The notes under the pieces were generated by a model. It searched no databases and had not been told where the DNA came from. It saw only the letters and a list, made by a program, of their open reading frames with translations. 64,000 nucleotides of DNA from positions 62,001 through 126,000 of the forward strand of contig NC_089429.1 of the NCBI RefSeq assembly GCF_026210795.1. The letters run 5' to 3'. Source of the DNA: Rhizophagus irregularis (lineage: Eukaryota). How positions within the stretch are numbered: the stretch's first letter is position 1; each line of letters starts with the position of its first letter. Position numbers and translations under genes: made by a program. This document shows, piece by piece, positions 36,441-64,000 of this stretch.

Positions 36441-37780
36441 TACAAACAGTCTTGTGACTTTATCTTTTATTTATATTTTAGTTTCGAAAGAATAGTCGAA
36501 CAATATTACAAAAATAAGAAAATAAACTAATAAAAAATAAAAAGAGTAGCTTCACGACTCATACAAGTAAAGAAATCTAAACTAAAATAAATTAAAGCAA
36601 AGAAAAACTAAACTATTACAGAATCGCATACCCCAACTTTACCCGAAGGCCAGTGTGAGTCAACTATCCAACATCCAAAAATCCAGTCCGTTACCAGAAA
36701 GAAACCCTAAGAGGTTGAACTGTTAAGCGGCGCAGAAAATCCAGGTGCGAGATCCACGATCCACCCCGAATTATAGAAGAGGATATCCAAGAAATCCAGG
36801 AATCCTGAGAAACTGTCGCCAAAGAAGAGTTGTGTTTTTGTGGAGAAGTAACGATAGAAGGAGAAGTTGTAGATGGGCCACGTAATTTGGAAGCAGCCGA
36901 GATACCCTGCGACTCTTCCCAAGCATGGAAAAGAACATTCCGGCATAGCCAAATTTCACCATATAATTCGACTTGGAAATCATTAAGGAGAGGAGAAATA
37001 GTCTTGTATATGACAGAGAGAGGAAAGTGTTGGTTTAAGAATGCTGTTAAATGTGCAGGTAACAATCCTCGAGTAAGCCAAAGACAGGACGGAGAAGGAG
37101 CTTCATAGTTCCAACAATCCAAAGCAGAGAATTCGTGTTGGAAAGAAATGTCCAAAGATTTCAAGGACAAGAAAGAAGATAAACAAGAATCTCTGAATTT
37201 AATAACTTCAGAATGATGTATTAAACATGGATTCAGATCAGGTAAAATATAAGGACAAGTCCAGAGATGGTTCAAGTCTTCAGGAGCTGAGTTGCATTGT
37301 GAACAAAGCCAATCGGGAGAATACAAATAGGGTTTGCGTTGTTGTAGAGTAGTTAAGGTAGGCAACATATCCAAAAGGAGTTTAATACGGAAGATCCAGA
37401 ATTCAGGATGACCATTCTTATGTGAAGCAAAACCTTTAATTTGTGAAAGGCAAAAATGTATACCAGCCCAATCAAAAAGTGAAGGAGAACCAAGAGCAGT
37501 AAAACGTGCCAATGAACAGAAAGATAAAAGAGCACGAGCATCAGCTATGGAGCGAAGAAAGTGACGAACATTCATGTCAACAGGCAAAGAATTAAATGAC
37601 AATAAGCATGGAGCATAGCAAAATTCCAAAAGTAAAACAGCAGGCTGTGAAGATGAATGAGCATCTTTGGCCAGAGAATCCGCTTGAACATTGTATATGT
37701 CATCACCATGAGCAGGGACTTTAATCAAATCGACTTTAAGATTTCGATCCATGATAAGTTGTTGAACAAAAAGCCAAAAC
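36441..37780 (-). mobile_element. 5'-truncated LINE-C (sister of LINE-B): end of RNase H, zinc motif and 3' UTR
   Basis: Uninterrupted frame IKVPAHGDD..N..AD, CSQCNSAPEDLNHLWTC, LRRLTVQPLRVSFW*; flanked by AGTTTTATCCTTTTCCG at 36424-36440 and 37781-37797. Confidence 0.88.
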
Positions 37781-38422
37781 AGTTTTATCCTTTTCCGATC
37801 ACTGGCTGACAAGTTATTCAACAAAATGTTAAACATCGGCATTATAATATTTCTTGATTTACGTTTACTGCACCATTTAACATTTTGCTAGATTTCTCGG
37901 TACCTAGTGATTGTAAAAAGACGATTTATAGCTCGTTGGAATCGCCTCATCGAGACGAATCGAATGGTGGTAAGCTCATCTCTCTGTGATCAATATTGAT
38001 GGAGTTATTACTTAAAAACAATTTAATATTTTTTAATTTCGGAAATTGATCTAGTGATTGGATTTTGATGTATTTTATACCATTAGATTCGTCTCATCAA
38101 GACGAATCGAATGGTAGTAAGATCGTCTTTCTAGGATCAATATTGACAGAGTTATTACACAAAAACCATTAATATTTTTTTAATTTCAGAAATTAATATA
38201 GTGATTGGATTTCGACGTATTTTATACCATTAGAACCGTCTCATCAAGACGAATCGAATGGCGGTAAGATCATCTCTCCACGATTAATATTGGCAAAGTT
38301 ACAATACAATAAAGTTTTAAGTATAATTCTGGCTAAAATTATGTTAATTTTTGGCCGGAATTATGATATACAAATATAAGAAATTTTTTATATAGTCACA
38401 TCTCTTTATAATCACCAAATAT

Positions 38423-39426
38423 ATGGGTTGGTCACCCTATCTCAGTGGTTAGTCACTGAGACCCTCATTAAGCCTGAGTATGGTGAGGTCGCAGGTTCGA
38501 TTCCCATGACCACGGAAATAAAAAAGAATTTTACTGCGGATGCTACAACCAATAGCGTGAAGGTACAGGGATTAGTGTAGTTGGACTGCATCATGGTGAA
38601 TTAGTGTGTACAGTTAGGCTGCACATTTCAACTAAGGGTCATGGTGTCCTTCTAACGTTCCCTATGAGGCCATTGGTATGTGCGCAGTCCTGTCTTTGGC
38701 GTCACTACTATACCTTGGGGGGACTTCCTGTCCAGGTGGTCACTCTACGATACCACTTGGGGTCAGTAATGGCTAGATGGTCGTCCTAGATGGTAAAGCT
38801 GAGGGTGCAATGTCTTAGTGGTAGTTTGACCTTCTGTTAGGTTTTAGACCAACCAAGGTGTTCGTGCACAGACAGATAGCTTGGTGATTGGGTTCGATTC
38901 CCTTCTCTGATGGGCCCTGGTTGGTGATTCCTGGTGGTTGATACCCACCATAAGGGATGATCCTGGGTAACACCTACAAGCTTACTGTTCAGGTGGTCAC
39001 TACAAAGTATACCACTTGGGGATTACAACTGTACTATCGGTGGTGGGTAATCGCAGGCTGTAGTGGCCTTTGAGTGAGACTTGTTACCTAATATGGTGGT
39101 ATGGAAGGGGTCTAGATGTTTGAAGGTTATCTGACGAAAGTCCTCCGTGACAGTAGTAGTGGTGAGGGGTTTATAATAGTAGCCATTACAGTATCATGCA
39201 ACGGATTAAAGGACGAGTAGGGTGGTGTTCTTCCGATTCAAAGGCCTTCGGGTCCCTGGGGTATGCCTGAATGTTGGACGGGCTGGATAAGTTGTCTTGG
39301 TTAAAAAGGTGGCCTTGATGACATCTGGTGGTTCAATGATGGCGAGGATACGAACGACCTACCTCCATAACCTTCAATAGAGGGTGCGGAAAGTAGTGGC
39401 CACTAAACGTACAATACACTTGTAAA
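38423..39426 (+). mobile_element. SINE-like element, variant B (~1.0 kb, two Pol III A/B-box modules, no long ORF)
   Basis: TCTCAGTGGTTAG (~38440) with GGTTCGATTCC (~38494); TCTTAGTGGTAG (~38813) with GGTTCGATTCC (38891); bounded by ATAATCACCAAATAT. Confidence 0.8.
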
Positions 39427-39441
39427 ATAATCACCAAATAT

Positions 39442-39542
39442 TCATGGCTTAGTGAGGATGATGCAATGAACGACCTACCTCCATAACCTTCAATAGAGGG
39501 TGCGGAAAGTAGTGGCCACTAAACGTACAATACACTTGTAAA
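39442..39542 (+). mobile_element. 101-bp array unit made of the SINE-B 3' tail
   Basis: GAACGACCTACCTCCATAACC..TACACTTGTAAA is identical to 39352-39426; flanked by the 15-mer on both sides. Confidence 0.8.
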
Positions 39543-39696
39543 ATAATCACCAAATATGAGGATCATCGCAACTCTTTCCTGAATTTTTGAAAATACTAAT
39601 AAAATTTTATTTTGAAATTTTCGTTCGAAAATTTCTAAGTGCTCGTTCAAATACTAATATTCCACAGTTGCTTTCCTCTTTACTGAGCTTTAAACT

Positions 39697-41814
39697 ATGA
39701 CTACACCTCCAGCTCCTTCTGTTATTAACCCGGATATTCCGCCGCCACTGTGTCCTGTTGTTTCTACTCCCTCTGGAGACCGACCTTTATTTCCCACTAA
39801 TACCGCTGGCACGCCTAACAAACGTTCACGCGTTGTCTCTGATGACGCTATGAATGTTGATATAACTTCACCTTCTGCTTCGACTCCCAACCTTATTTCT
39901 ACCGCTCCCTCAGGTCTTCCTGTCAACAAAGTCCAAGTGATTACCTCTTCTCGTAATACTACTACCCCTGTTGAAACTGTTGACGCTTCCATCCATGCTC
40001 CCTCCAACACTGATGGCAAAGGCAAAGCTGTTGCTTTTGATATCCCAGAACGACGACCATCTCCCGATGGTAATGCTGCTGCTATCAAATCCGCACCCTC
40101 TCGTTATCATGCTGCGGCCTATCTACGTGACGCACCTTACGCGTTTACAGCTAAATTCACCACCAATCGCTCTATGTGTGACGAAGTGGATTGTTCACTC
40201 TCCCGTTATCCCTCTTATGGTGCCCGTGCACGTTGCGACGGATCAGGCAATAACAAAAAGATCCTTGTCTTCTTCAATGATCAGCATGACTATACCGATT
40301 GTGTCAGTTCACCACATGCAGATCTTCTCAATTTAGCCTTTATTTATTATTCCCCTGCAGATGCCAAACTCAATGACGAAGCGAAGTCTTTGTTTGTTAC
40401 TGATATCCCACTTTTCCTAACTGAGACTCAAGTCCGTCAGGCCTTTTCCCGTTATGGCACTGTAACCAAGTGCAAACTTACTCCTCGAAAACACTATTAC
40501 AATAGACATATCCAATTTTCCTCCGCGGACGCAATTACCCAATTTAATGATATTTGGGCGATCGTTTGTCTTGGTAATTCTTTACGCGTCTGTCCGGCAT
40601 CTTATTCAAAATCCCAACGTGATAGCCGCAGAGAACATGTTGCTATCCTTGCCAGCATTCCCAAAAATATTAAAGAAACTGATCTGATAGATATTGCCAC
40701 TCAAGTTAACGCTAAGGCTCTTAACGTTCCTTTATCTATCAATTCATACAAACCTAAACCCTATGCATATTTGAATTTCTCCTCGTTCGAATCTCTTGAG
40801 GCCGCCAAAGAAATGACCGTGGCTTTCCGCGGCAAAGGTTTAACTTGGCACCCTCCTAATGAAGTTCACACTTTATGTCATGTCTGCGGACGTTCGGGTT
40901 GCTCTCCTTCTGTATGTAGCCCTCGCCCTACACGTAAAGTAGACGATCGCCTTAACAAACTTTACTCTCGCTTCAATGCTGGCCCTAGACGTGGCCGTCA
41001 GGATTCACGACAATCACGTGACAACTCTAATTCCCGTTCAAGATCACGTTCCAATTCTCGATCTCGCTATAATAATTCCTCTTCATCCCGCTCTAACAAC
41101 AGCAATAATAATTCTAACACTTCTCGTCCCAATACTCCTCGAAGTAGTAACCGGACTAACAATAATAATAATAATCCCAGAAACAATGAAAATTCCAGAC
41201 CTGCTCAACCTTCGCACAAACCTCATCCTATTATTTCTACAACACCTGCTTCTTCATCTAATGATCCTGCCCCTACGCTTCCTCAACATATTATTGATGA
41301 ATTAAAGGCGCAGATTAAAGAGATCGCTAACACCCTTCATACTCTCGAGGAAACTGTCTCTTGGATGAATGATACTATCACGTCCCATGAATATAGGCTA
41401 TCCGAACTTGAATCAGCGATGAATTATGACAACCCTGGTGACTCTGATTTGTATCCGCCTCGTGATGATTATGAAAATCAGGATCATTCTTATAATAATG
41501 GATGGGATGATGTTTCAACACATGACACAAATTCTGGATTCAACCTTCCTCCCCATACTTCCTCTTCTCTTATGGACGTTTCTCCTGATGCTTCCTTCTC
41601 AGCTTTGGATCCTAGCTCCGTCCTATCAAGACGACATGTCCCCTTACCTGTCTCCCGACCTACTAATATCACCCCCGACGCTAATACTTCCCGTTTGCAA
41701 TCAGAAATTTTTAATGTTACTAATATACAAATGAATCTTTCTGCCCAACTTGATTCAATTATGGAAAAATTGGACTTCTTCTCTCCTTCTAAACCCTCCC
41801 CTTCCAATGATTGA
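39697..41814 (+). CDS. LINE-B ORF1, 705 aa (RRM-like domains, Cys knuckle, RS/N-rich linker, coiled coil)
   Basis: SLFVTDIPLFL..FSRYGTV, YAYLNFSSFE, CHVCGRSGCSPSVC; homologous to LINE-A ORF1. Confidence 0.9.
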   Translation: MTTPPAPSVINPDIPPPLCPVVSTPSGDRPLFPTNTAGTPNKRSRVVSDDAMNVDITSPSASTPNLISTAPSGLPVNKVQVITSSRNTTTPVETVDASIHAPSNTDGKGKAVAFDIPERRPSPDGNAAAIKSAPSRYHAAAYLRDAPYAFTAKFTTNRSMCDEVDCSLSRYPSYGARARCDGSGNNKKILVFFNDQHDYTDCVSSPHADLLNLAFIYYSPADAKLNDEAKSLFVTDIPLFLTETQVRQAFSRYGTVTKCKLTPRKHYYNRHIQFSSADAITQFNDIWAIVCLGNSLRVCPASYSKSQRDSRREHVAILASIPKNIKETDLIDIATQVNAKALNVPLSINSYKPKPYAYLNFSSFESLEAAKEMTVAFRGKGLTWHPPNEVHTLCHVCGRSGCSPSVCSPRPTRKVDDRLNKLYSRFNAGPRRGRQDSRQSRDNSNSRSRSRSNSRSRYNNSSSSRSNNSNNNSNTSRPNTPRSSNRTNNNNNNPRNNENSRPAQPSHKPHPIISTTPASSSNDPAPTLPQHIIDELKAQIKEIANTLHTLEETVSWMNDTITSHEYRLSELESAMNYDNPGDSDLYPPRDDYENQDHSYNNGWDDVSTHDTNSGFNLPPHTSSSLMDVSPDASFSALDPSSVLSRRHVPLPVSRPTNITPDANTSRLQSEIFNVTNIQMNLSAQLDSIMEKLDFFSPSKPSPSND

Positions 41815-44800
41815 ACACCTATTTATATCGGATGCATCACAGGGATTTCATCCCCCTAATAGTGCGATACCTAATAATAATAGTCCTAATAATCCCTCTT
41901 CTCCTTCCTTTTCTTCCCCTCTTATTAACTTTGGACAAATCAATGTTAATGGATTATGTTCCCCGATTCGACAATTGCATTTGTTAAATTATTTCCTTCA
42001 TTCTTCTTTTGGCGTTTTATCTTTAAATGATACTCGTTTTATTTCCTCTAGTGCTAAATTTATTTATCAAAATGAACATTCCCAACATAATTTTAAGTCC
42101 TATTGGACTCCTTCCCCTTCTAATTCACGACCTCATGATGGTGTTGGTCTTTTACTTCGCCATCCTTTATATAAACATGTTCAGAAAATTGATCCTTGGA
42201 AAGGTCGTCTTTTAAAATTAGATCTTTTTTTCCATCAAACTAAAATTTCCATCATTTCTGTTTACATTCCTCCTTATCACTCTATTCATTATAAAGAACG
42301 TGATGCTATTTTTGCCCAACTTAATTTATGGCTTGATAAAGCCCGTTCTAATAATTACCATGTTGTAATACTTGGTGATCTTAATGCAGATGAAATTTCA
42401 CATTCACATCTTCCTCAACATCATTTAAAAATTGTACGATTACTTTCTTCTCGATATTTTACGGATCATCAATCCCATATCTCATCAATTTCTGGTCCTA
42501 GTCCTACCTTTTATCATCAGAATGGTTCTTCAAGACTTGATTATATTTGGTCATCCCCTGGATTTCCTGCTCCTGGTCTTTTTTCTCAAGTTGAAACTTG
42601 TCCTAAGTTGAATGATAATCAATTTACTGATCACCGTGTACTTATTACGACCTTTGATTTTAGCTCTTGTTTTGCTACTTTAGCTAAAGCTAGATTAAAA
42701 CAAAAAAGCGAACAACGCACCATCTTTCTTTACAAAAATTTGAAAGATGACACTTGGGACAAATTTTCCAATGAAGTAAATTCACGTCTTTAGTTATACT
42801 TGACCACACACCACCCTTCAGTATCTTCACTTTCAGCTCTTTCATTGGACAAACTTTGGCACACTCTTAAACGTTCTATTCTTGGTGGTGCCATTGAATT
42901 TCTACCATTTCAACATGTATCCAATACCCATCACCATAAATATCCTCCTGAGCTTACGATGCTTATTGCTATCAACAAATTCTTGGATAGATTATTGTTC
43001 AAATTGACCACGTCTCGGCCTAGTCGTCCAGCTCAAATTTCACAGATGATTAATTCTTTGTCTACACAACTAATTCTTCTGAAATCTTTTTTAAAAAATT
43101 ATACTATACCTATTTATAGTACGACACCACTTCCTGCTTTTATCAAATTTTTGCGTTCGCAAAAAGCTTTGGTCTCTGCATATCTTTCCACACAATTTCA
43201 TCAACATTGTGTAGATTCCATAGAGTATTATACTGCTCTTAGAGATGAACATTTCTCTACGTCTCCAGGCTCTTTTATTTCTTCAGCCCTATCAGTGGAA
43301 CATCGTTCTATCGTCCTTGATAGAGTTTTGGTGGTTATTGACTCCAAACCCACATTACTTACTGATCCTTTGGATATCAAGCAAGCTGCTATAAAACATT
43401 TCCAATCGGTTGTTACTCCTCCTTTGGTCCAGTATTCTTCTACAGATTCATTTCCTTCACGATGGCAACGAGCATATACTCCTCTTCCTGATATTGATTC
43501 GTCATTATTCAACTCGGTCATGTCTCCTATTCTGGAAGATGAATGGAAGAACACCCTCAATTCCATGCCTAATAACAAGGCCTCCGGTCCTTCCAAAATT
43601 TCTTATGAAATGCTCAAACATCTAACTGGCGAAGCTCTCAACTTATCCCTTGTTTTAGCTAACGCCTGCCTCATTCATGGAGACATCCCTGCTGATTGGC
43701 GTGAAGCGCTTGTTTATCCCATTTTTAAGCCTCATGAATTTGACGCCCAATTAAAGAATACGCGACCTATCACTTTGTTAGAAACCGTATGGAAATGCGT
43801 GGTTAAGTTCGTTACAACTAGACTTTCAAAAATCCTGGCTGACAATCAAGTGCTCCAAGGTGGTAATTTTGCTGGATTGCCAGGTGGTTTCACTGACATT
43901 CCTATTAAGATGCTCGATGCTATTATTCATCAACGACGCTTTGATAAAAGCGATGACCAAGAATTATGGATTGTTTCTCAGGACATTTCTAAGGCCTTTG
44001 ACTCAATTGATTTAAACATGCTTAGACTAGCTTTAATCCGTCTGCATATACCGTCTCTATTGATTAAATTTATCATCAACCTTTTTACTAGACGTAATAA
44101 TAAAATTATTACCCATCATGGTGATACTTCTGGATATAGAGTGAAAATTGGTATTGACCAGGGTGAAATTATTTCTCCATTATTATGGGTTATTTACTTG
44201 GATCCTTGCTTACTACACTTAATCGTGAAGCTTGTGATCCCTTTATTTTGAAATCTTCTGCATTATTGGATTATTCTCCAATTGAATATAAACAACATAA
44301 TCTTCCTGTTTCGCATATTACATTTATGGATGATTCTACTTTAATTGCTTCATCTAAACGAGGAATTGAAGATCGCCTTTCCATTACTGCTGAATTTTAT
44401 ACTCTAAATAATACTCAAGCAAATTCAGCAAAATATATCCTTCTTTCTTCTGAACAATTCTCTCAAACTGTAGAGTTTGATCTTTTTCCGTCTCCTTTAA
44501 TTACAACTTCTACCCTTACTTTAAAGGCTTTAGCCTTATCAACATCTTTCCGTTTTTTAGGGGTTTGGTTCTGCCTTTCGGCTTCCTCTCGCTTTGTTCA
44601 CAACCAAACTACTTCCATGGTTAAAGATATGGCTGCTTTACTTAGTCCTAAAAAGCTTTTGGCTCAACATGTGGCTTATCTTTATAATGTTGTCCTGCTT
44701 CCGAGACTAGAATTTCGCCTACAAACCACATTATTTGCAGAATCCACCATTAATCGCATGGTTTCTCCAATGCTTTCTCTTATTCGTCAAAAGGCTGGTT

Positions 44801-47285
44801 TGGCCTCAGTCACTCCTCTTTCTGCGCTTTTCACACTGTTGCCGTTCTCTATCCAGCAAGCGTTTGGTCGATTTCTATCATCTCATGTGGCTTCATGGCA
44901 AAGAGTTTTCTCTCATCCCTCATTTAAGGTTTTTGCCAATTATATGATTACCTATCTCCAAGGATTTTTGGATTGTGATGCCTGTCCCTCTACTATTGAT
45001 TTGGAACCATGGTCCCATACCTTTTCTTTACGAACACATTCTTTGTTCAATTCTTTATTGTTCTCTTCTCGCTTAAATATCACGTGGTCTTTATTGTTCC
45101 GACCTCTGAGGAAAGATTTACGTCCGGCAATTCCACTCCGGTCTATTTTACCGAACGATTTATTTACTTCCATGAATAAAGTTCGGAAGAAATTTTGCAC
45201 TCGTTTTCTTGCCCAATTGATTACACCGTGTGGCTCTCGACTTCTCCCATGGAAAGATTTACGTTTTCTTAAACGTGTCTCGAACAAAGGATCCGTGCTT
45301 GCTTGGTTTAATTATTTATTTAATCTTGTTGTTATTCCTAATTCATCTTTCTTTTTTATTTTACAAACCATTTAGAATTCCTAATTCCCATACTGTAGCT
45401 TCTATTTCTTTTATAGACATTAGTCGAAATTATTGGTTTAACCCTCAATGGGCTATTTCTTTTAATCGCAATACTAACTCTTTCTTTGTTGGCCGTGTGA
45501 TTACTACCTATCCTGCTCCACGTAACAAAGCTCTTATTTCATATTGGATTGCGTCTTCGGTTGATGATTTGCTTTCTGATTTTACTGCATGCCAAGGTTG
45601 TGCCTCTGCTCTCCCGCGATCCTCTACCTCTAAGACGTTGCTTAAACGTTGTCCTTCTGAAAAGTGCTTCTCTTATGTTCCGTTATCAAGTTTGATCCGT
45701 TATCCTACGAAACCTCGTACTTATATACATGCGGATACTCGCTCGGTTTCACTTTCTGCCTCGTTAGGCTATGCCAAATCTCTTTTATTATTTCATCTTT
45801 TTGCTCCGGATCGGTTACCTTCTACGAATAAACAAGTGCCTAGGATTTCTGATATCCAACTTCCTTCTTTGGTGTCTACACTCTATATTGATGGTTCCTT
45901 CCTTCCTCCTTCTAGTCATCCGGTATCCTCGATGGCTTATGCATGGACTGCTATAGATCCTGATGGATTTATTTTGGAATCCCACTATAATAATATTTTT
46001 TCCATTTTTCATTCTGCTCTACGCTCAGAAATTTTTGCTTTATTGCATGGATTGGACTCCCTCCCTCGAAATTCAAAGATTACTGTCACCACTGATTGTG
46101 CTCAATTACTTTCTTTATGGTCTTTGTATGTGGATGCCCTTTTATTCCCAGAATGCTTAACGAATCCAACCACTTTTTGTGGTTCTCCATTCGCACTATT
46201 ATGTTGCAAAAGAATCTGGATGTTACCTTGATCAAGGTTCCTGCTCATGCTGACGACCCTTTGAATAATCATGTGGATGCATTAGCCAAAGCCGCTCATA
46301 CTGATTCACATCTTTCTTCTTGTCCACAATTGGAATTGATGGCTCCTTGCATTTTACAATTTAATTCCTTACCTGTGGATATGAATATCCGGAAATTTAT
46401 TAGAGATATTTTTAACGCTAAAAGTCTTCTAACTCTTGCTGTATTACCAAGATTTAATTCCTATTCCTCAACTTCTGATATTGATTGGGCTTGCACCAAA
46501 TTTTGTCTCAATAACAATAAACAATTTGCCTCTCATTGGAATGGCCGTTCCGAATTTTGTGGTTTCCGTATCAAACTACTATTAGATATGCTTCCGACGC
46601 TTACAACTCTTCAGAGACGAAAGCCTCATGTTTATAATCCAAGTTGGCTTTGTCCCAATGTAACTCTTTTCCTGAGACTTTAGACCACTTGTGGACTTGT
46701 CCTTATATCTTACCAGAATTTAGCCCTTTAAATACCTTTAAAACACTTTTCTTGGCTCTTCGGACTAATTATCTTGACAAACTCCTTTCCGCGTCATCTT
46801 TAATACCATTACCGGACTCTTTTGCTGCTGCATTTATGGCTCTTGATTGTTGGGATTGTGACCCTCCTTCATTTTCTTGCCTGAGACTCGTACGAGGACT
46901 TATACCGATATCCCTTACAGAATTTCTTGGAACCTATTTTTCTTCATTTACCATATGGTCTATCTTAGATACACCTTTGCACGACTTTCATTTTGACCTT
47001 TATGTCCAAATCTGGTTGTGCCGTTCCATTTTTTTTCATCATTGGGAATTAGCTCAAGGCATTACAAAAAAAATGAAATCGTCAGCTTTTGGGCCTTCTT
47101 CTTTTCTTTGTCCTTCCTCTAACATTCCTCTTGACTCTTCGACACCTTCCTTGGCGACAGCTTCCTTGGATTCCTGGGTTTCTTGGGTTTCCTCTTCTAT
47201 AATCCGTGGGGGATCTTGGATTTCGCAGTTGGATTTTTGGCGCCGCTTAACAGTTCAGCCTCTACTTAGGATTTCTTTTTGGTAA
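41807..47285 (+). pseudogene. LINE-B copy 1 ORF2 (APE-RT-RNase H-Zn) with one in-frame stop and several frameshifts
   Basis: QINVNG, GDLN, RLDYIW, TDH; QDISKAFDS, GIDQGEIISP, FMDD; YIDGS, RSEIFAL, VPAH..NNHVD. Confidence 0.9.
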
Positions 47286-47563
47286 CGGATTGGATCTTAG
47301 GACATGCTGGATAGTTGACTCACACTGGCCTTCAAGTAAAGTTGGGGTATGCGTATTCTGTAATAGTTTAGTTTTTCTTTACTTAATTTTATTTTGTTTA
47401 GATTTCTTTACTTGTATGAATCGTGAAGCTAGTTCTTTTTATTTTTTGTTTATTTTCTATATTTGATATTTGTAATATTGTTCGATTTGTTTATTGTACT
47501 TTCGTTTAAAAATAATAATAAAAGATAATGTCATAAGACTGTTTGCTCATAATCACCAAATAT

Positions 47564-50500
47564 GAGGATCATCGCAACTCTTTCCTGAATTTTTGAAAAT
47601 ACTAATAAAATTTATTTTTGAAATTTTTGTTCAAAAATTTCTAAGTGCTCGTTCAAAATACTAATATTTCCACAGTTGCTTTCCTCTTTACTGAGCTTTA
47701 TACTATGTCTACACCTCCAGCTCCTTCTGTTATTAACCCGGATATTCCGCCACCACCACGTCCTGTTGTTTCTACCCCTCTGGAGACCGACCTTTATCTC
47801 CCACTAGTACCGCTGGCGCGCCTAACAAACGTTCACGCGTTGTCTCTGATGACGCTATGAATGTTGATATAACTTCACCCTCTTCTCCTGCTCCCAACCT
47901 TATTTCTACCGTTCCTTCTGGTCTTCCTGTCAACAAAGTCCAAGTGATCACCCCTCCTCTTAATACTACTACTCCTGTTGAAACGGTTGACGCCTCTATC
48001 CATGCTCTTCCAACACCGATGGCAAAGGCAAAGCTGTTGCCTTTGATATCCCAGAATGACGACCATTTCCCGATGGTAATGCTGCTGCTATCAAATCCGC
48101 ACCCTCTCGTTATTATGCTGCGGCCTATCTACGCGACGCGCCTGACGCGTTCAAAGCTAAATTTACCACTAATCGCTCCATGTGTAACGAAGTGGATTGT
48201 TCACTCTCCCGCTATCCCTCTTATGGTGCCCGTGCACGTTGCGACAGGTCAGGCGATAACAAAGAGATCCTTGTCTTCTTTAATAATCAGCATGACTATA
48301 CCGATTGTGTCAGTTCACCACATGCAGATCTTCTCAATTTAGCCTTTATTCATTATTCCCCTGCAGATGCCAAACTCAATGATGAAGCGAAGTCTTTGTT
48401 TGTTACTGATATCCCACTTTTCCTAACCGAGACTTAAGTCCGTCAGGCCTTTTCTCGATATGGCACTGTAATCAAGTGCAAACTTACTTCCCAAAAACAT
48501 TACTACAATAGACATATCCAGTTTTCCTCCGCGGACGTAATTACCCAATTTAATGATATTTGGACGATTATTTGCCTTGGTAATTCTTTACGCGTCTGCC
48601 CGGCGTCTTATTCGAAATCCCAACGCGATAGCCGCAGAGAACATGTTGCTATCCTTGCCGGCATTCCAAAAAATATTAAAGAAGCTGATCTAATAGAAAT
48701 TGCTACTCAAGTTAACGCTAAGGCTCTTAACGTTCCTTTATCTATCAGCTCATACAAGCCTAAACCCTATGTATATTTGAATTTCTTCTCGTTCGAATCT
48801 CTTGAGGTTGCCAAGGAAATGACCGTGGCTTTCCGCGGCAAAGGGTTAACATGGCACCCTCCCAATGAAGCACAAACTTTATGCCATGTTTGTGGGCGTC
48901 CTGGTTGTTCTCCCTTTGTATGTAATCCTCGTCCCACACGGAAAGTGGACGATCGCTTCAACAAGCTTTATTCTCGTTTCAATGCTGGACCTAGATGTGG
49001 TCGTCAGAATTCGCGCCAATCACGTGACAATTCCAACTCCTGTTCAAGATTGCGTTCCAATTCTAGATCCCGCAATAATAATTCCTCGTCATTCCGTTCC
49101 AACAACGACAATAATAATATGAACACTTCTCGTCCCAACACCTCACGCAGTAGCAACCGGCCCAATAACAATAATAATAATATTTCCAAGAACAATGAAA
49201 ATACTTCCGGTTCTGCTCAACCTCCACACAGACCTCATCCTATCAATTCTACATCTCCTACTTCTCCATCTGCCGATTCTGCTCCTACACTTCCTCAACA
49301 TGTTATTGATGAATTAAAGGCATAGATCAAAGAGATCGCTACCACCCTCCACACTCTAAAAAAAACTGTCTCTTGGATGAATGATACTATTACGGCTCAT
49401 AAATATAGGCTATCTGAGCTTGAATCAATGATGAATTATGACAACCCTGGTGACTCTGATTTGTATCCACCTCGTGATGATTATGAAAATCAAAATTATT
49501 CTTATGATAATGGATGGGATGATGCTCCAATCCATGACACGAATTCTGGATTCAATCTTCCTCCCCATACTTCCTCTTCTCTTATGAACGTTTCTCCTGA
49601 TGCTTCCTTCTCAGCTTTGGATCCTAGCTCCGTCCTATCAAGACGACATGTCCCCTTACCTGTCTCCCGACCTACTAATATCACCCCCAACGCTAACACT
49701 TCCTGTTTGCAATCAGAAATTTTTAATGTTACTAATACACAAAAGAATCTTTCTGCCCAACTTGGTTCGATTATGGAAAAATTGGACTCCTTCTCTTTTT
49801 CAAAACCCTCCCCTTCTAATGATTGAACACCAACTTATATCGGGTGTATCACAGGGATTTCACCCTCCTGATAGTGCGATACCTAATAATAATAGTCCTA
49901 ATAATCCCTCTTCTCCTTCTTTTTCTTCCCCTCTTATTAACTTTGGACAAATCAATATTAATGGATTATGTTCCCCTGTCCGACAATTGCATTTGTTAAA
50001 TTATTTCATTCATTCTTCTTTTGGCGTTTTATCTTTAAATGATACTTGTCTTACTTCCTCTAGTGCTAAATTTATTTATCAAAATGAACATTCCCAACAT
50101 AATTTTAAGTCCTATTGGGCTCCTTCCCCCTCTAATTCACGACCACATGATGGTATTGGTCTTTTACTTCGCCATCCTTTACACAAACATGTTCAGAAAA
50201 TTGATCCTTGGAATGGTCATTTATTAAAATTAGATCTTTTTTTTCATCAAACAAAAATTTCTATCATTTCTGTTTACATTCCTCCTTATCACTCTATTCA
50301 TTATAAAGAACGTGATGCTATTTTTGCCCAACTTAATTTATGGCTTGATAAAGCCCGCTCTAATAACTATCACGTAGTCATCCTTGGTGATTTTAATGCA
50401 GATGAATTTTCACATTCACATCTTCCTCAACATCATTTAAAAATTTTACGATCACTTTCTTCTCGATATTTTACGGATCATCAATCCCATATTTCCTCAA

Positions 50501-53500
50501 CTTCAGGTCCTAGTCCTACCTTTTATTATCAGAATGGTTCTTCAAGACTTGATTATATTTGGTCATCCCCTGGATTTCCTGCTCCTGGTCTTTTCTCTCA
50601 AGTTGAAACTTGTTCTAATCTGAACAATAATCAATTTACTGATCACCGTGTACTTATAACGGCCTTTGATTTTAGCTCATGTTTCGCTATCTTATCCAAA
50701 GCTCAATTAAAGCAGAAAAGCGAACAACGCACCATCTTTCTTTACAAAAATTTGAAAGATGACACTTGGAACAAATTTTCTAATGAAGTAAACTCACGTC
50801 TTGAGTTATACTTAACCACACACCACCCTTCAGTATCTTCACTTTCAGCTCTTTCATTGGACAAACTTTGGCACGCTCTTAAACGTTCTATTCTTGGTGG
50901 TGCCATTGATTCTCTACCATTCCAACATGTATCCAACACCCATCATCATAAATATCCTCCTGAACTTACAATGCTTATTGCTGTCAACAAATTCTTAGAC
51001 AGATTACTGTTTAAATTGACCACATCTAGGCCTGGTCATCCTGCTCAAATTTTACAAATGATTAATTCTTTACCAACCCAATTAATCCTCCTTAAGTCTC
51101 TTTTAATAGATTATACTATACCTTCTTATAGTACAACACCACTTCCTACTTTTGTCAAATTTTTACGTTCACAAAAAGCTTTGGTTTCAGCTTATCTTTC
51201 TACACAATTTCATCAGCATCGTGTAGACTCCATTGAATATTATACTGCTCTTAGAGATGAACATTTCTCTACATCCCCGGGCTCTTTTATTTCTTCAGCC
51301 CTATCAGTGGAACATCGTTCTATCGTCCTTGATAGAGTTTTGGTTGTTATTGACTCCAAACCCACCTTGCTTACTGATCCCTCAGATATCAAACAAGCTG
51401 CTATTAAACACTTCCAGTCGGTTGTTACTCCTCCTTTGGTCCAGTATTCTTCTACAGATTCATTTCCTCCACGATGGCAACGAGCATATACTCCTCTTCT
51501 AGATATTGATTCGTCCTTATATAACTCGGTTATGTCTCCTATTCTGGCTGATGAATGGAAGAACACTCTCAATTCTATGCCTAATAATAAAGCCTCTGGT
51601 CCTTCCAAGATCTCTTATGAGATGCTCAAACATTTAACTGGAGAAACTTTCAATTTGTCCCTTGTATTAGCCAATGCTTGTCTCATTCATGGAGATATTC
51701 CTGCTGATTGGCGTGAAGCGCTTGTTTACCCCATTCCTAAGCCTCATGAATTTGACGCCCAATTGAAGAATACGCGACCTATCACTCTATTGGAAACAGT
51801 ACGAAAATGTGTGGTTAAGGTCGTTACAACTCGACTTTCAAAAATCCTAGCTGACAATTAAGTGCTCCAAGGTGGTAATTTTGCCGGATTACCTGGCGGC
51901 TCCACCGACATTCCTATTAAGATGCTTGATGCTATTATTCATCAACGACGCTTTGATAAAAGCGATGACCAAGAACTATGGGTTGTTTCTCAGGACATTT
52001 CTAAGGCCTTTGACTCGATTGATTTGAACATGCTTAGACTGGCTTTAATCCGTCTGCATATTCCGTCCTTACTGATTAAATTCATCATTAACCTTTTTAC
52101 AAGACGTAATAATAAAATTATTACCCATCATGGTGATACTCCTGGATATAGAGTTAGAATTGGTATTGACTAGGGCGAAATCATTTCTCCACTACTATGG
52201 GTTATTTATTTAGATCCTTTGCTTACAACACTTAATCGAGAAGCTTGTGATCCCTTTATTTTGAAATCTTCTGCATTATTGGATTATTCTCCAATTGAAT
52301 ATAAACAACACAATCTTCCTGTTTCACATATTACATTTATGGATGATTCTACTTTGATTGCTTCATCTAAACGAGGAATTGAAGATCGCCTTTCCATTAC
52401 TGCTGAATTTTATACTTTAAATAATACTCAAGCAAATTCAGCAAAATATATTCTTCTTTCTTCTGATCAATTTTCTCAAACTGTTGTGTTTGATCTACTC
52501 CCATCTCCTTTAAATACGATTTATACCCTTACTTTAAAGGCGTTAGCCTTATCTACATCTTTTCGGTTTTTAGGTGTTTGGTTTAACCTTTCGGCTTCTT
52601 CTCGTTTTGTTCATAACCAAACAGTTTCCATGGTCAAAGACATGGCCGCTCTACTCAGTCCTAAAAAACTTTTAGCACAACATATAGCCTATCTTTATAA
52701 TGTTGTCCTACTTCTGAGGCTAGAATTTCGCCTACAAACCACGTTATTTGCAGAATCTACCATTAATCGCATGGTTTCTCCAATGCTTTCTCTTATTCGT
52801 CAGAAGGCTGGTTTGGCCTCAGTCACTCCTCTTTCCGCGCTTTTCACACTGTTACCTTTCTCTATTTAACAAGCGTTTGGTCGATTTCTATCATCCCATA
52901 TGGCTTCATGGCAGAAAATTTTTTCTCACCCTTCATATAAGCTCTTTGCCAATTATATGATTACTTATCTCCAAGGTTTTTTGGACTGTGATGCCTGCCC
53001 TTCTACTACTGACCTGGAACCATGGTCCCACACTTTTTCTTTGCGAACACATTCTTTATTTAATTCTTTATTGTTCTCTTCTCGTTTAAATATCACGTGG
53101 TCTTTATTATTCCGACCTCTGAGGAAAGATTTACGTCCGGCGATTCCATTCCGGTCTATTTTACCAAAAGATTTATTTACTTCCATGAAAAATGTTCGAA
53201 ACAATTTTGGTACTCGTTTCCTTGCCCAACTGGTTTTTCCGTGTGGCTCTCGACTTCTCTCATGGAAAGATTTACGCTTTCTTAAACGAGTATCGAACAA
53301 AGGATCTGTGCCTGCTTGGTTTAATTATTTGTTCAATCTTATTGTTATTCCTAATTCACCTTCTTTTTTTATTTTATAACAATTTAGAATTCCTAGTTCT
53401 CATACTGTTACTTCTATTTCCTTTATAGATATTAGTCAAAATTATTGGTTTAACCCTCAATGGGCTGTTTCTTTTAATCGTAATACTAACTCTTTTCTTG

Positions 53501-55563
53501 TTGGCCATGTGATTACTACCTATCCTGCTCCACGTAATGAAGCTCTTATTTCACATTGAATTGCGTCTTCGGTTGATGATTTGTTTTCTGATTTTACTGC
53601 ATGTCAAGGTTGTGCCTCTGCTCTCCTGCGATCCTCTACCTCTAAAACACTGCTTAAACGATATCCTTCTGAAAAGTGTTTCTCTTATGTGTCTTTATCA
53701 AGTTTGATCCGTTATCCGACGAAACCTCGTACTTATATACATGCGGATACCCGCTCGGTTTCACTTTCTGCCTCGTTAGGCTATGCCAAATCTCTTTTAT
53801 TATTTCATCTTTTTGCTCCGGATCGGTTACCTCCTATGAATGAACTAGTGCTTAGGATTTCTGATATCCAACTTCCTTCTTCGGTGTTTACACTTTATAT
53901 TGATGGTTCCTTCCTTTCTCCTCCTAGTCATCCGGCATCCTCGATGGCTTATGCATGGACTGCTATAGATCCTGATGGATTTATTTTGGAATCCCATTAT
54001 AATATCATCTCTTCCACTTTTCCTTCTGCTTTACATTCAGAAGTTTTTGCTTTATTGCACGGATTGGACTCCCTTCCTCGGAATTCAAAGATTACTGTCG
54101 CCACTGATTGTGCCAATTACTTTCTTTATGGTCTTCGTATGTGGATGCTCCTTTTATTCCCAGAATGCTTAAAGAATCCAACCACCTTTTGTGGTCCTCC
54201 ATACGCACTATTATGTTGCAAAAGAATCTGGATGTTACCTTAATTAAGGTTCCTGCTCATGCTGACGACCCTTTGAATAATCATGTGGATGCATTAGCTA
54301 AAGCCGCTCATACTGACTCACATCTTTCTTCTTGTCCACCATCGGAATTGATGGCTCCTTGCATTTTACAATTTAATTCCTTACCTGTGGATATGAATAT
54401 CCGGAAATTTATTAGAGATATTTTTGACGCCAAAAGTCTTTTAACTTTTGCTGTATTACCAAGATTTAATCCCTATTCTTCAACTTCTGATATTGATTGG
54501 GCTTGCACCAAGTTTTGTCTCAATAACAATAAGCAATTTGCCTCTCATTGGAATGGCCGTTCCGAGTTTTGTGGTTTTCGTATCAAATTACTTTTAGATA
54601 TGCTTCCAACGCTTACAACTCTTCAGAGACAAAAGCCTCATTTTTATAATCCAAGTTGGCTTTGTTCTCAATGTAACTCTTTTCCTGAGACTTTAGACCA
54701 CTTGTGGACTTGTCCTTATATCTTACCGGAATTTAGCCCTTTACATACTTTTAAAACACTTCTATTGGCTCTCCGGACTAATTATCTTGCCAAATTCCTT
54801 TCTGCGTCGTCTTTAATACCTTTACCGGACTCTTTTGCTGCTGAATTTATAGCTCTTAATTGTTGGAATTGTGACCCTCCTTCATTTTCTTGCCTGAAAC
54901 TCGCACGAGGACTTATACCGATATCCCTTACAGAATTTCTTGGAAATTATTTTTCTTCACTTACCATATGGTTTATCTTAGATACACCTTTGCACGACTT
55001 TCATTTTGACCTTTATGTCCAAATCTGGTTGTGCCGTTCCATTTTCTTTCATCATTGGAAATTAGCTCAAGGCATTACAAAAAAAATGAACTCGTCAGCT
55101 CTTGGACCTTCTTCTATTCTTTGTCCTTTTTCTAACATTCCTCTTGACTCTTTGACACCTTCCTTGGCGACAGCTTCCTTGGATCCCTGGGTTTCATGGG
55201 TTTCCTCTTCTATAATCCGTGGGGGATCTTGGATTTCACATTTGGATTTTTGGCGCTGCTTAACAGTTCAGCCTCTACTTAGGATTTCTTTTTGGTAACT
55301 GATTAGATCTTAGGACATGCTGGATAGTTGACTCACACTGGCCTTCGGGTAAAGATGGGGTATGCGTTTCTGTAATAGTTTAGTTTTTCTTTACTTAATT
55401 TTATTTTGTTTAGATTTCTTTACTTGTATGAATCGTGAAGCTAGTTCTTTTTATTTTTTATGTTTATTCTCTATATTTGATATTTGTAATATGGTTCGAT
55501 TCGTTTATTGTACTTTTCGTTTAAATTTAATAATAAAAGATAAAGTCAAAAGACTGTTTGCTC
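47564..55563 (+). mobile_element. LINE-B copy 2, full length, both ORFs disrupted
   Basis: Colinear with copy 1 with the same termini; stops at e.g. 48435, 49323, 51859, 52171 and 52867. Confidence 0.93.
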
Positions 55564-57675
55564 ATAATCACCAAATATGAGGATTATCGCAACTCTTTCC
55601 TGAAAACTTGAAAATACTAATAAAATTTATTTTTGAAATTTTCGTTCAAAATTTTTAAGTGCTCGTTCAAAATACTAATATTTCCCCAGTTGCTTTCCTC
55701 TTTACTGAGCTTTATACTATGACTACACCTACAGCTCCTTCTGTTATTAACCCAGATATTCCGCCGCCATCACGTCCTGATACTTCAGCTCCTTCAGGAG
55801 ACCGACCTTTGTCTCCTACTAATACCGCTGGCACGCCTAATAAACATTCGCGTATTGTTACTGATGATGCTATGAATGTTGATATAACTTCGTCCTCTTC
55901 TCCTGCTCCCTCCCTTATTTCTACCGTTCCTTCTGGTCTTCCTGTCAACAAAGTCCAAGTGATTACCTCTCCTCATAATACTACTACTCCTGTTGAAACT
56001 GTTGACGCTTCTATCCATGCTCCCTCTAACACCTGATGGTAAAGGCAAAGCTGTTGCCTTCGATATTCCGGAACGACAACCATCCTCCGATGGTAATGCT
56101 ACTGCTATCAAATCTGCACCCTCTCGTTATCATGCTGCGGCCTACCTACGTGACGTGCCTGACACATTCAAAGCTAAATTCACCACCAATTGCTCTATGT
56201 GTGACGAAGTGGATTGTTCACTCTCCCATTATTCTTTTTATGGCGCTTGTGCACGATGCGAAGGATCAAGCGATAACAAGAAAATCCTTGTTTTCTTCAA
56301 TAATCATGATGATTATACCGATTGTGTCACCTCCCCATGTGCCGATTTCCTTGATTTGGCTTTCAGTCATTACTTCCCTGCAGACGCTAAGCTCAGTGAT
56401 GAAATGAAGTCTTTGTTTGTCACTGATATTCCACTTTTCCTAACCAAGACTCAAATCCGTTAGGCATTTTCCCGATATGGCACTGTAATCAAGTGCAAAC
56501 TTACTCCTAGGAAATATTACTATAATGATTGTTGGTCCGATTGCTACTTTGGGAAGTATTGGGACGAGAAGTATTAGTATTATTGTTGCTGTTGTTGGAA
56601 CGGGATGAAGAGAAATTATTATTGCAGGATCTAGAATTGGATCACGATTTTGAACGGGAATTGGAATTGTCACGTGATCAGCGCGAGTTTTGATGACCAC
56701 ATCTAGGGCCAGCATTGAAGCGAGAATAAAGTTTGTTAAGGCGATCATCTACTTTCTGTGTGGTACGAGGATTGCATACAGAGGGAGAACAACCAGGGCA
56801 CCCATAAACGTGGCATAAAGTTTGTGCTTTATTGGGAGGATGCCATGTTAATCCTTTACCACAGAAAGCTACGATCATTTCTTTGGCAGCTTCAAGAGAT
56901 TCAAACGATGAGAAATTCAAATATACATAGGGTTTAGGCTTGTAGGAGCTGATAGATAGAGGAACGTTAAAGGCCTTAGCGTTAACTTGAGTAGCAATTT
57001 CTAACAGATTAGCTTCTTTAATATTCTTTGGAATGCTGGTAAGGATAGCAACATGTTCTCTGCGGCTATCGCGTTGAGATTTTGAAAAAGATGCCGGGCA
57101 AACACGTAAACAATTACCAAGGCAAATGATCGCCCAAATATCATTAAATTGGGCAACTGCATCTGCAGAGGAAAATTGGATATGTCAATAATAATAATCC
57201 TTGGAACAATGATAATTCTTCCGGTTCTACTCAACCTCCACACAATCCTCATCCTACCAATTCTACACCACCTACTTCTCCATCTGATAATTCTGCCCAT
57301 ACACTTCCTCAACATATTATTGATGACTTAAAAGTGCAGATCAAAGAGATCGCTAACACCTTTCATACTCTAAAGGAAACTGTCTCTTGGATGAATGATA
57401 CTATCACGGCCCATGAGTATAGGCTATCTGAGCTTGAATCAATGATGAATTATGACAACCCTGGTGACTCTGATTTATATCCGCCTCGTGATGGTTATGA
57501 AAATCATACTCATTCTTATGATAATGGATGGGATGATGCCCCAACCCAAGACACGAATTCAGGATTCAATCTTCCTTCCCATACTTCTCCTTCTCTTATG
57601 GATACTTCTCCTGATGCTTCCTTTTCAGCTCTAGATCCTAACTCCGTCTTGTCAAGAAGACATGTCCCCTTACCT

Positions 57676-57720
57676 CACACGTCAAATGATCAAAAATAGG
57701 CAAAAAAAATGGCGCAAATT
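57676..57720. mobile_element. Single TIR of the CACAC.. MITE family seen at 35217-35416
   Basis: CACACGTCAAATGATCAAAAATAGGCAAAAAAAATGGCGCAAAT is the reverse complement of 35373-35416. Confidence 0.8.
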
Positions 57721-57723
57721 ATA

Positions 57724-57892
57724 CATGCTGCTCAAATTATTTTGGGATGCCATAATTATAATTTGGGATGCTATAATTCATTCGGTTTATATATAATTTA
57801 CTATGTAAAGTGCCAAAATAATTTGGGATGCCATAATTGAATTTGGGATTTTACTTATAATTACGGCAGTCCAAAATAATTTGGGTGGCATG
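57724..57892. mobile_element. Tc1/mariner-like MITE flanked by TA
   Basis: TA|CATGCTGCTCAAATTATTTTGG..CCAAAATAATTTGGGTGGCATG|TA. Confidence 0.75.
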
Positions 57893-60800: not shown

Positions 60801-61655
60801 TTACTCGAATTTAGTCCTTATAATACCTTCAAAACACTTCTGTTGGAACTTAGAATTGTGTGTATTGAGAAATTTCTTTCTGCGACTCCTTTAATACCTT
60901 TACTGGACTCTTTCGTTGCAGAATTTACGGCTCTTGATTATTGGGAATGTGACTTTCCTTCGTCTTCTTGCCTGTGACTTACACGTGGACTCATACCGAT
61001 ATCCCTTACAGGATTTCTTGGACTTTACTTTTCATCATTCGTTATATGGTCTATTTTAGATACATCTTTACACGACTTTCACTTTGATCTTTATGTTCAA
61101 ATCTGGTTGTGCCGTTCTGTTTTCTTTTATCATTGGGAATCAGCTCAAGGCATCTCTAATAAAATAAAATCGTCCGTTATTGGACCTTTTCCTATTTCTT
61201 ACCCTTCCTCTCAAATCTCTCCTGATTTCTCGACACTTTCCCTGGCGATAGTTTTCTTGGATTCCTGGGTTTCTTGGGTTTCCTCTTATATAATCCGTGA
61301 GGGATCTTGGATTTCGCACTTGGATTTTTGGCGCCGCTTAACAGTTCAGCCTCTACTTAGGATTTCTTTTTGGTAACGGATTGGATCTTAAAACATGCTG
61401 GATAGTTGACTCACACTGGCCTTTAGGTAAAGTTGGGGTATGCGTTTCTGTAATAGTTTAGTTTTTCTTTACTTAATTTTATTTTGTTTAGATTTCTTTA
61501 CTTGTATGAATCGTGAAGCTAGTTCTTTATATTTTTTATGTTTATTTTCTATTATTTGTTTTTGTAATATTGTTTGATTTGATTATTGTACTTTTCATTT
61601 AAATTTAAAATAAAAGATATAGTCATAAGACTGTTTGCTCATAATCACCAAATAT

Positions 61656-64000
61656 GAGGATCATCGCAACTCTTTCCTGAAATCTTGAAAATACTAATAA
61701 ATTTAATTTTTGAAATTTTCGTTCAAAAATTTCTAAGTGCTCATTTAAAATACTAATTATTCCCCGTTGCTTTTCTCTTTACTGAGCTTTATACTATGAC
61801 TACACCTACAGCTCCTTCTGTTATTAACCTGGATATTCTACCGCCACCGCGTCCTGTTACTTCTGCTCCCTCTGGAGACTGACCTTTATCTCCCACCAAT
61901 ACTGCTGGTGCACCAACCAAACGATCACGTACTGTTTCTGATGACGCTATGAATGTTAATATAATTTCGCCCTCTGCTTTTGCTCCCACACTTATTTATA
62001 CCGTTCCTTCTGGTCTTCCTATCAACAAAGTCCAAGTGATTACCTCTCCTCATAATACTACTACTCCTGTTGAAACTGTTGACGCTTCTATCCATGCTCT
62101 CACTAACACCAGTAGTAAAGGCAAAGCTGTTGCCTTCAAAGTCCTGGAACGACAACCATCCCCAATGGTAATGCTGCCGCTATCAAATCTGCACCCTCTC
62201 GTTATCATGCTGTAGCCTATCTACACGACGCACCTGACACGTTTAAAGCTAAATTCACCACCAATCGATCCATGTGTGACGAAATGGATTGTTCACTCTC
62301 CCACTACCCTTCCTATAGCACCCGCGCACGTTGTGATGGATCAGGCTATAACAAAAAAATCCTTGTCTACTTCAATAATCATGAAGATTTTACCGATTGT
62401 GTCAACTTCCCACGTACCAATCTCCTCGATTTGGCCTTTACACATTATTCCCCTGCAGATGTCAAGCTTAGCGACGAAGCGAAATCTTTATTCGTCACCG
62501 ATATCCCACTTTTTCTAAACGAAACACAAGTCCGTTAGGCGTTTTCTCAATATGGTACTGTGATTAAGTGCAAACTTACCCCTAGGAAACATTACTGTAA
62601 TGGACACATCCAATTTTCTTCTGCTGATGCAGTTACCCAATTTAATGATATCTGGGCGATCATTTGCTTAGGCAATTCTTTACGTGTCTACCTGGCATCT
62701 TTCTTAAAATTCCAACGTGATAGTCGTAGAAAACATGTTGCTATCCTTGCTTGCATTCCAAAAAAATATTAGGGAAGCTGACCTTTTAGAAATTGCTAAC
62801 CAAGTCAACGCTAAGGCTCTTAACGTCCCCCTTTCTATCAGTTCTTACAAGCCTAAACCCTATGTATATATGAATTTCTCCTCATTTGACACTCTTGAAG
62901 CTGCAAAAGAGATGACTGTAGCTTTCCGCGGCAAAGGGTTGATGTGGCACCCTCCCAATGATGCACACACTTTATGCCATGTTTGTGAGAGTCCTGGTTG
63001 TTTCCTTTCTGTGTGTAATCCTCGTTTTACACGTAAAGTGAATGATCGTCTTACCAAATTATATTCATGCTTTAATGCTATTCCTCAACGTGGTCATCAG
63101 GATTCGCACCAATCACATGACAAATCCAATTCCCATTCAAGATCGCGATCCAATTCTAGATCCCGCAATAATTTTTTTTCACCCCGATCCAGCAATAGCA
63201 ATAATAATCCTAATATTTCTCGTCCTGAAACCTCCTCATATAACAACCAGAATAATAACAATAATAATAACAAACCCAGAAATAATGAAACTTCTTCAGG
63301 TTCTACTCAATCTTCACACAAATCTTAGCCTAATAAATCTATACCTGTTTCTCCATCTAACAATTCTGCCTTTACGCTTCCTCAACATATTATTGATGAT
63401 TTAAAAGCGCAGATTAATAAGATTGCTAATACCCTCTATACTCTCAATGAAACTGTCTCCTGGATGTAGGAAACTATCACGCAACATGAGTATAGACTAT
63501 CTGAGCTCGAATCAATGATGAATTATGATAATCCTGGTGACTCAGATTTATATCTGCCTCATGATGATCATGAAAACTATTCCCATGGTAATGGATAGGA
63601 TGATGAACCAACCCGAAAAACGAATTCACGATCCAATCTTCCTCCTTATACTTCCTCTTCTCTTATAGACACCTCTCCTAATACCTCCTTTTCAACTTTG
63701 GATCCTAACTCCGTCTTATCTAGTAGACATGTCCCTTTACCAAACTCATGATCCAACATTATTGCCCCTGATGCTACTACTTCCCGTCTACAATTGGAAA
63801 TTTCTAATGTTACTAATGTACATAAGAATCTTTCTGCTCAACTTGGTTTGATTATGGATGAATTGGACTCCTTCTCCCTCAAACCTTTCCCCTTCTAATG
63901 ATTAAACACCAACTTAATTTGGGTGATTTACAGGGATTTTACCCTACTAATAGTGCGATACCTGATAATGCTAATCATAATAATTTTCCCCTTTCCTCTT
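61656..64000 (+). mobile_element. LINE-B copy 4, 5' part (runs off the window), ORF1 heavily decayed
   Basis: Same 5' start GAGGATCATCGCAACTC; ORF1 fragments with many stops. Confidence 0.9.

Follow-up and report, generated by a model that had tools for sequence, protein, structure and literature searches.

A 64,000-nucleotide stretch of the Rhizophagus irregularis genome (contig NC_089429.1, positions 62,001 to 126,000; here the window, with coordinates counted from its first base) ends in an array of retrotransposon units stacked head to tail within a DNA transposon. A short interspersed nuclear element (SINE)-like unit, S1, is followed by a second short unit, S2, and by four copies of a long interspersed nuclear element (LINE), L1 to L4, of a family designated B. 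The 15-mer ATAATCACCAAATAT occurs six times in exact form in the window, always on the plus strand and only at the unit joints. No further copies were found in the window at up to two mismatches; a shuffle control for the 15-mer gave a mean of 0.65, and none of 100 shuffles reached six. This agrees with the initial annotation, in which six identical 15-mers were said to separate a SINE-like unit, a 101-bp unit and four LINEs in one orientation. The units between the 15-mers measure 1004 (S1), 101 (S2), 7991 (L1), 8000 (L2), 6062 (L3) and at least 2345 bp (L4). The description of all four LINEs as being of an 8-kb type holds for L1 and L2; L3 has been reduced to 6.1 kb by rearrangement (an inversion within the copy, an insert and a deletion of 2.2 kb), and L4 meets the end of the window. 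The four LINEs share exactly the same first base, and the three LINE 3' ends that lie within the window are identical over their last 12 nt and have no poly(A); the shared start and the absence of poly(A) are as annotated. The coordinates of the array and of the surrounding host element are collected in Table 1.

Table 1. Target copies, inserted units and host transposon segments in the window
Feature	Coordinates	Strand	Remarks
Target B copy 1 (15-mer)	38408..38422	+	native host sequence; putative active landing site
S1, SINE-like non-coding unit	38423..39426	+	A-box-like motif at 38441; B-box-like motifs at 38494 and, second, at 38891
Target B copy 2	39427..39441	+	exact 15-mer
S2	39442..39542	+	26 nt with no other match in the window, plus 75 nt identical to S1 3' end
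Target B copy 3	39543..39557	+	exact 15-mer
L1, full-length family-B LINE	39558..47548	+	intact open reading frame 1 (ORF1; RRM); ORF2 with apurinic/apyrimidinic (APE) endonuclease, reverse transcriptase (RT) and, by likeness to P0235, RNase H; 5 breaks/2398 codons
Target B copy 4	47549..47563	+	exact 15-mer; also in public contigs
L2, full-length	47564..55563	+	91.6% identical to L1; 11 breaks/2398 codons
Target B copy 5	55564..55578	+	exact 15-mer
L3	55579..61640	+	~86.5% identical to L1/L2; inversion ~56516-57196; insert ~57676-57896 at 2.2-kb deletion; 13 breaks/1410 codons
Target B copy 6	61641..61655	+	exact 15-mer
L4, 5' part	61656..64000	+	~81% identical to L1/L2; 9 breaks/700 codons; ends at window edge
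Host non-autonomous DNA transposon, left end	34578..34875	+	terminus CAGTTAAC.. at 34580, preceded by TA; six subterminal motifs of the TATAGTCAC type; target A copy 3 at its end
Target A copy 3	34860..34875	-	16-mer with one substitution; downstream of SINE-A
SINE-A	34876..36423	-	two small inserts, ~35595-35964 and ~35222-35416
Target A copy 2	36424..36439	-	joins the 3' end of LINE-A to the 5' end of SINE-A; reads GGAAAAGGATAAAACT in element sense
LINE-A, 5'-truncated, sister family A	36440..37780	-	1.34 kb; 361 codons without break; 90% to P0233
Target A copy 1	37781..37796	-	16-mer in host 147-bp repeat
Host transposon, middle	37797..38407	+	three more 147-bp-type repeats; TATAGTCAC motif at 38391

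The LINE copies, which are 81 to 92% identical to one another, were compared in pairs by frameshift-aware codon alignment. In all eight comparisons the ratio of nonsynonymous to synonymous divergence (dN/dS) lay between 0.15 and 0.29, with dS ranging from 0.27 (L1/L2) to 0.57 (L1/L4), and third codon positions carried an excess of the differences (8/8, p 7e-5 to 4e-35). Copies that had been duplicated locally and then decayed would be expected to show a dN/dS near 1, and a single copy multiplied by mis-assembly would be nearly identical throughout. Because the differences are mostly silent, the copies are separate insertions from different active source elements.

The copies also differ in their state of decay, and do so in order. 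Breaks (stops plus frameshifts) rise from L1 to L4 as 2.1, 4.6, 9.2 and 12.9 per 1000 codons (one-sided trend p 1.2e-4), and stops alone as 0.4, 3.3, 6.4 and 8.6 (p 1.7e-4); when stops shared between copies were dropped the trend persisted for breaks (p 4e-4) and for stops (p 8e-4). L3 has its rearrangements as additional damage, and the longest end branch in the RT tree (0.068, against 0.025 for L1 and 0.030 for L2). In the long comparisons, the ratios of private nonsynonymous to synonymous changes rose along the array (0.54, 0.51 and 0.91 for ORF2; 0.65, 1.08 and 1.14 for ORF1). Since decay is graded in the order L1 < L2 < L3 < L4, growth of the stack is likely to take place upstream, with the newest unit in front. 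The upstream 15-mer would be the entry point; it alone among the copies still has the native flank ahead of the presumed nick. The same CAG to TAG stop is present in ORF1 of L3 (56461) and of L4 (62536) and does not lie in a conversion tract (the identical run is 10 nt); it may reflect recurrence or a shared source.

The first 15-mer directly follows host DNA and overlaps TATAATCAC, a variant of the host TATAGTCAC motif, which bears out the annotation of this copy as native to the host element. The left terminus of the host is TA followed by CAGT, and its right end, with the closing 15-mer, lies outside the window. No transposase frame was found in the 922 bp of host DNA within the window. By the motif at this left end, the element may belong to the Tc1/mariner superfamily or to the 'pogo-like' group named in the annotation. 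The same host element holds a second stack, about 610 bp from the first and on the opposite strand, in which LINE-A and SINE-A are separated by an unrelated 16-mer. With stack A taken out, the 147-bp repeats of the host fall back into register, so its site is native as well. In the rebuilt host, site A occupies positions 281-296 (opposite direction) and site B, the 15-mer, positions 908-922 (same direction). In stack A an unbroken LINE-A lies upstream of a twice-interrupted SINE-A with a mutated duplication, an order that parallels the main array. Family A may prefer site A genome-wide.

The predicted proteins of the array LINEs place them among APE-type elements. The frames of L1 gave matches above the Pfam cut-offs to RRM_1, Exo_endo_phos and RVT_1. 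No Pfam match to RNase H was obtained in the broken L1 frames themselves; L1 and L2 are 92% identical over ~1690 codons to the protein P0235, which carries PF00075 (RNase H), and the family-B LINE is on this basis predicted to bear that domain. A putative RNA-binding ORF1, an ORF2 with predicted APE endonuclease and RT, the target duplication and a 5'-truncated copy together mark these elements as APE-type LINEs. The best matches of L1 ORF1 are R. irregularis proteins (85-92% among the top five). In an RT tree of database homologues only, L1 to L3 form one clade, family B (support 98/97). The best matches of LINE-A are P0230 and P0233 (90-91%), whose clade is the sister of family B, and in the endonuclease-RT part the likeness of the two families is about 65%.

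A third, distant LINE family (C) is present on the minus strand from 27926 to 19761 (region 19713-28267). Its ORF2 matches P0121, an R. irregularis protein from a cluster of 113 members, at 100% identity over 961 residues, and compared with solved structures its protein gave about equally weak matches to those of the retroelements known as L1 and R2. The family-C LINE sits inside a 389-bp near-perfect palindrome (183/194 pairs) that ends in CACTG..CAGTG, is flanked by an ATA duplication and, by its motif, is taken to be CACTA-like; the LINE itself shows no clear target duplication. In this window, LINEs of all three families lie in non-autonomous DNA transposons. One of 240 proteins, P0173 of family C, has a gene model that passes from the end of ORF2 into a 5'-truncated ORF2, which hints that, elsewhere in the genome, family C forms a tail-to-internal tandem. 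A single gene model of this kind is too little to build on.

The assignment of the short units is less direct. S1 has no reading frame of 150 residues or more; a second copy is SINE-A, and both are flanked by the target duplication of their site. SINE-A matches S1 at 94% over 457 bp of the head and 83% in the middle, and has a different 3' part. A strict A-box pattern had no match, ARAGORN found no tRNA gene in the head and Rfam gave no tRNA match, so the tRNA-like head of S1 and SINE-A is proposed from the box-like motifs only. Two Rfam matches to mir-2804 were far under threshold and within an inserted palindrome, and were discarded. Comparison of 3' ends revealed no tail common to SINE and LINE, and BLASTN of S1 against the LINEs gave no match. 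S2 had been annotated as a SINE tail, which is correct for its last 75 nt (100% to S1) and not for its first 26 nt (39442-39467); these have no other match in the window and a loose likeness to the LINE start. The end of S1 together with the following 15-mer forms an exact 90-bp repeat, and S2 may have arisen either by truncation of a SINE variant or by local duplication of these 90 bp with added filler. A 44-bp transposon end has been inserted both in L3 (57676-57719, at the 2.2-kb deletion) and in SINE-A (35373-35416).

The occurrence of the 15-mer junction beyond the window was assessed with contigs from four of 24 public runs, placed on a 601-bp stretch at the L1/L2 joint. Where the 15-mer ends, summed depth came to 83,506, 162,075 (run X17), 7,606 and 112,445 (run X3), and long single contigs had depths of ~90-290 (7-35 in run X1). 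Relative to position 47529 in the LINE 3' end, depth at the end of the 15-mer was 0.43, 0.48, 0.40 and 0.60 in the four runs. In X17 and X3 it exceeded that in the first bin of the LINE 5' end (162,075 against 129,175 in X17; 112,445 against 64,357 in X3), against depths of ~180-280 for long single contigs, so many LINE 3' ends continue past the 15-mer into sequence that is not the start of a full LINE. Among 24 of the 271 loose ends, those preceding the 15-mer included the 3' end of the SINE (8 contigs of X1, agreement 0.82) and a host flank unlike that of the window (3 contigs of X3, 0.72). Among 40 of the 143 letter variants, a form of the junction that has one additional G and does not occur in the window was present in all four runs. 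A LINE family has been regarded as target-specific when more than 20% of its flanks represent one target (PMC4494074). The depth ratios of 0.40-0.60 point above this figure, with the reservation that summed depth is not a count of flanks. The junction depth favours genome-wide targeting. Outside these runs, the LINE 5' 26-mer had no match in metagenomes, and a single match of the LINE 3' motif there, in a bacterial coding region, was dropped as due to chance. Protein-led scans gave 170 pattern matches in prokaryote genomes, none of which was confirmed, and none in viral contigs. Neither motif was present in the supplement of a transposon survey of mycorrhizal fungi (PMC11952901).

Taken together, these observations make it probable that family-B LINEs repeatedly insert at a single, fixed position of a non-autonomous DNA transposon, duplicating 15 bases each time. 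In the proposed mechanism, which builds on the established process of target-primed reverse transcription, the APE endonuclease of family B would set the site by nicking at TTT/ATAATC, and a second cut 15 bp further on would lead to duplication of the target. The upstream duplicate, which retains the native flank, would stay cleavable and be cut again, so that separately inserted LINEs and hitch-hiking SINE-like units would pile up head to tail, newest first. Sequence upstream of the nick would be needed for cleavage; the downstream copies show TTTGCTC or TGTAAA in place of TCTCTTT. The SINEs are likely to be moved by LINE proteins, of either family. The exact 5' junctions, seen in four of four LINEs, may mean that some of the spacer is included in the transcripts, which would then pair with the target. 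The proposal in the initial annotation that each insertion regenerates its target is supported by the silent-site divergence, by the native 15-mer, and by the junction depth and the variant host-15-mer-LINE and SINE-15-mer-LINE junctions in public contigs.

It should be noted that several observations weigh against this interpretation. Two short ORF1 comparisons (267-268 codons) are not monotonic along the array, the private ratios being 0.47 and 0.81 for L3 and 0.94 and 1.08 for L1, and the frameshift counts may include sequencing errors. L2 and L3, otherwise 86.5% alike, share an identical 134-nt tract (52837-52970 and 58914-59047) that holds a shared stop and has a chance probability of ~2e-6. 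This tract probably arose by gene conversion, and it shows some exchange between copies, which can blur their ages. The lack of a tail common to SINE and LINE 3' ends also counts against the model. The junction in stack A taken alone gives no order, and two extra bases there may be microhomology. As for the public contigs, summed depth does not equal copy number, since contig overlap can inflate it up to ~31-fold, leaving a floor of ~14-28 copies (X3, X17); one run may be from the source strain; and the loose ends and letter variants were drawn from the fractions of the entries given above.

Among other explanations of the array, the one that survives best dispenses with a fixed target: new copies, guided by the junction, would re-enter at the duplication lying upstream of an earlier LINE or SINE of any kind, regardless of its sequence, and each array would have its own spacer. 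The unrelated spacers of two stacks ~610 bp apart, with related SINEs in both, are what such a process would give. In addition, five pairs of overlapping ORF1 homologues have the same longest-contig size (13.7-61.7 kb; found by eye in 120 rows), which hints at clustering and not at a site. Against this stand the repeat-level depth of the same 15-mer in all four runs, with several host-flank and SINE-flank variants, and the presence of different LINE families in the two stacks, as for the Tx1-Mar families at two sites discussed below. We therefore regard it as rather unlikely.

If the 15-mer were instead a terminal tail carried by the elements, units would merely abut, and a high depth of the 3' end together with the 15-mer would be expected in this case as well. 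But host DNA precedes the first 15-mer, which also overlaps one of the host's motifs, the 15-mer follows SINE and LINE ends that have nothing else in common, SINE-A and LINE-A are without it, and three contigs of X3 join host DNA through the 15-mer to a LINE start; a carried tail is thus improbable. Local amplification by unequal crossing-over, rolling-circle copying or a template-jump concatemer, followed by neutral decay, is more improbable still. Local exchange has left marks, in the L2/L3 tract and in the 90-bp repeat of the S1 tail and 15-mer, and S2 may be such a duplication; for the LINEs, however, a dN/dS far from 1 and dS values up to 0.57 largely refute it, and in a concatemer neither a target copy at every joint nor mixed ages would be expected. 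An assembly artefact that strung dispersed copies together through the 15-mer is scarcely credible, even though none of the contigs listed spans the 601-bp stretch, because contigs are not joined over as little as 15 bp, the copies are 8-19% apart, and neither a monotonic order of decay nor a second stack with its own spacer would be expected.

Fixed-site insertion with regeneration of the target has well-described counterparts. In the published text consulted, tandem R1 elements of Drosophila 28S rDNA are separated by a 14-bp duplication, and new copies are inferred to enter the duplication 5' of resident ones (PMC2718515). The fungal array resembles them in being made of APE-type LINE copies separated by a target duplication, with probable growth at the 5' duplication. 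It differs in that R1 targets rDNA, averages at most two to three copies per unit, involves no SINE and has no graded ages reported in that text (PMC2718515), whereas the fungal copies reach a dS of 0.57. The closest parallel is in crocodilians, where Tx1-Mar LINEs and SINEU elements occupy dissimilar sites in Mariner-N4_AMi, at ~240 (opposite direction) and ~830 (same direction), with a preference by family, and where tandem SINEU-3 copies sandwich a 16-bp duplication (PMC4494074). Here too a LINE and a SINE share a DNA-transposon target, with two dissimilar, oppositely oriented sites used by different families, a 16-bp duplication at one of them and tandem SINE units on either side of a duplication. 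As far as the available account goes (PMC4494074), the fungal array is distinguished by its host, by RNase H, by tRNA-like box motifs in place of a U1/U2 SINE head, by at least four full-length-type LINEs in one stack, by targeting that looks base-exact and by a measurable age gradient.

Other systems are less similar. Double insertion in Drosophila, in which an insertion keeps the target and makes a new one, lets site-preferring elements build tandems that carry the duplication in the joint; those described are mostly dimers of one family, often 5'-truncated, and no mixed LINE/SINE stack in a DNA transposon is among them in the portion available (10.1101/158386). Tx1L of Xenopus is likewise an APE-type LINE that targets a non-autonomous DNA transposon, the piggyBac-type Tx1D, with neither stacking nor a SINE mentioned in the passage citing it (as cited in PMC4494074). 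FoTeR, MoTeR and Cnl1 are site-specific non-LTR elements of fungi, as the array LINEs are; they use a restriction-like endonuclease at telomere targets, are described as having no definite target duplication and are unrelated in enzyme architecture (PMC12857005). The RT tree contains no Tx1 reference sequences, and the likeness to Tx1-Mar and R1 proposed here is one of mode of working.

The initial annotation, which knew of no such case in fungi, overrated the novelty, as stacking of a LINE and a co-targeting SINE in Mariner (PMC4494074) and growth at the 5' duplication in R1 (PMC2718515) are both on record. It mentions neither the gradient of ages nor the second stack. The logic of the mechanism is known; what is new is the fungal host, the RNase H-bearing lineage and the long age-graded record. 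A literature search, with subscription papers, Repbase and bioRxiv supplements outside its reach, found no fungal transposon-targeting APE LINE with a co-targeting SINE, and the accessible portion of the survey of transposons in mycorrhizal fungi makes no mention of such arrays (PMC11952901).

Elsewhere in the window there is a tandem array with a unit of ~50 bp (13208-14299) and a related shorter repeat (~12326-12574). A RING-finger gene on the minus strand is accompanied by a decayed inverted paralogue (3123-4710 and 33012-34394), the two being 65-80% alike.

A broader and more tentative proposal is that, in arbuscular mycorrhizal fungi, a LINE lineage with RNase H evolved this targeting independently, its sister families each having their own exact site in non-autonomous DNA transposons. 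The two-site, opposite-strand layout would then be convergent with that of crocodilian Tx1-Mar, and proteins bound to the host repeats would perhaps guide the targeting. With growth at one end and copies that are hardly homogenised, every array would record LINE and SINE activity as a time-ordered tape, which could be read across strains. As a whole this reading is possible, though we would not call it likely. The array extends transposon-targeting APE LINEs with co-targeting SINEs to the fungi. One-sided growth with graded decay would give an order of insertion without an outgroup, and with it a direct means of dating LINE subfamilies and neutral mutation in a fungus in which the evolution of the nuclei is hard to time. 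Finally, two sister families that are ~65% alike and use unrelated sites are a natural pair for the study of changes in APE specificity, a question that bears on site-specific insertion tools.

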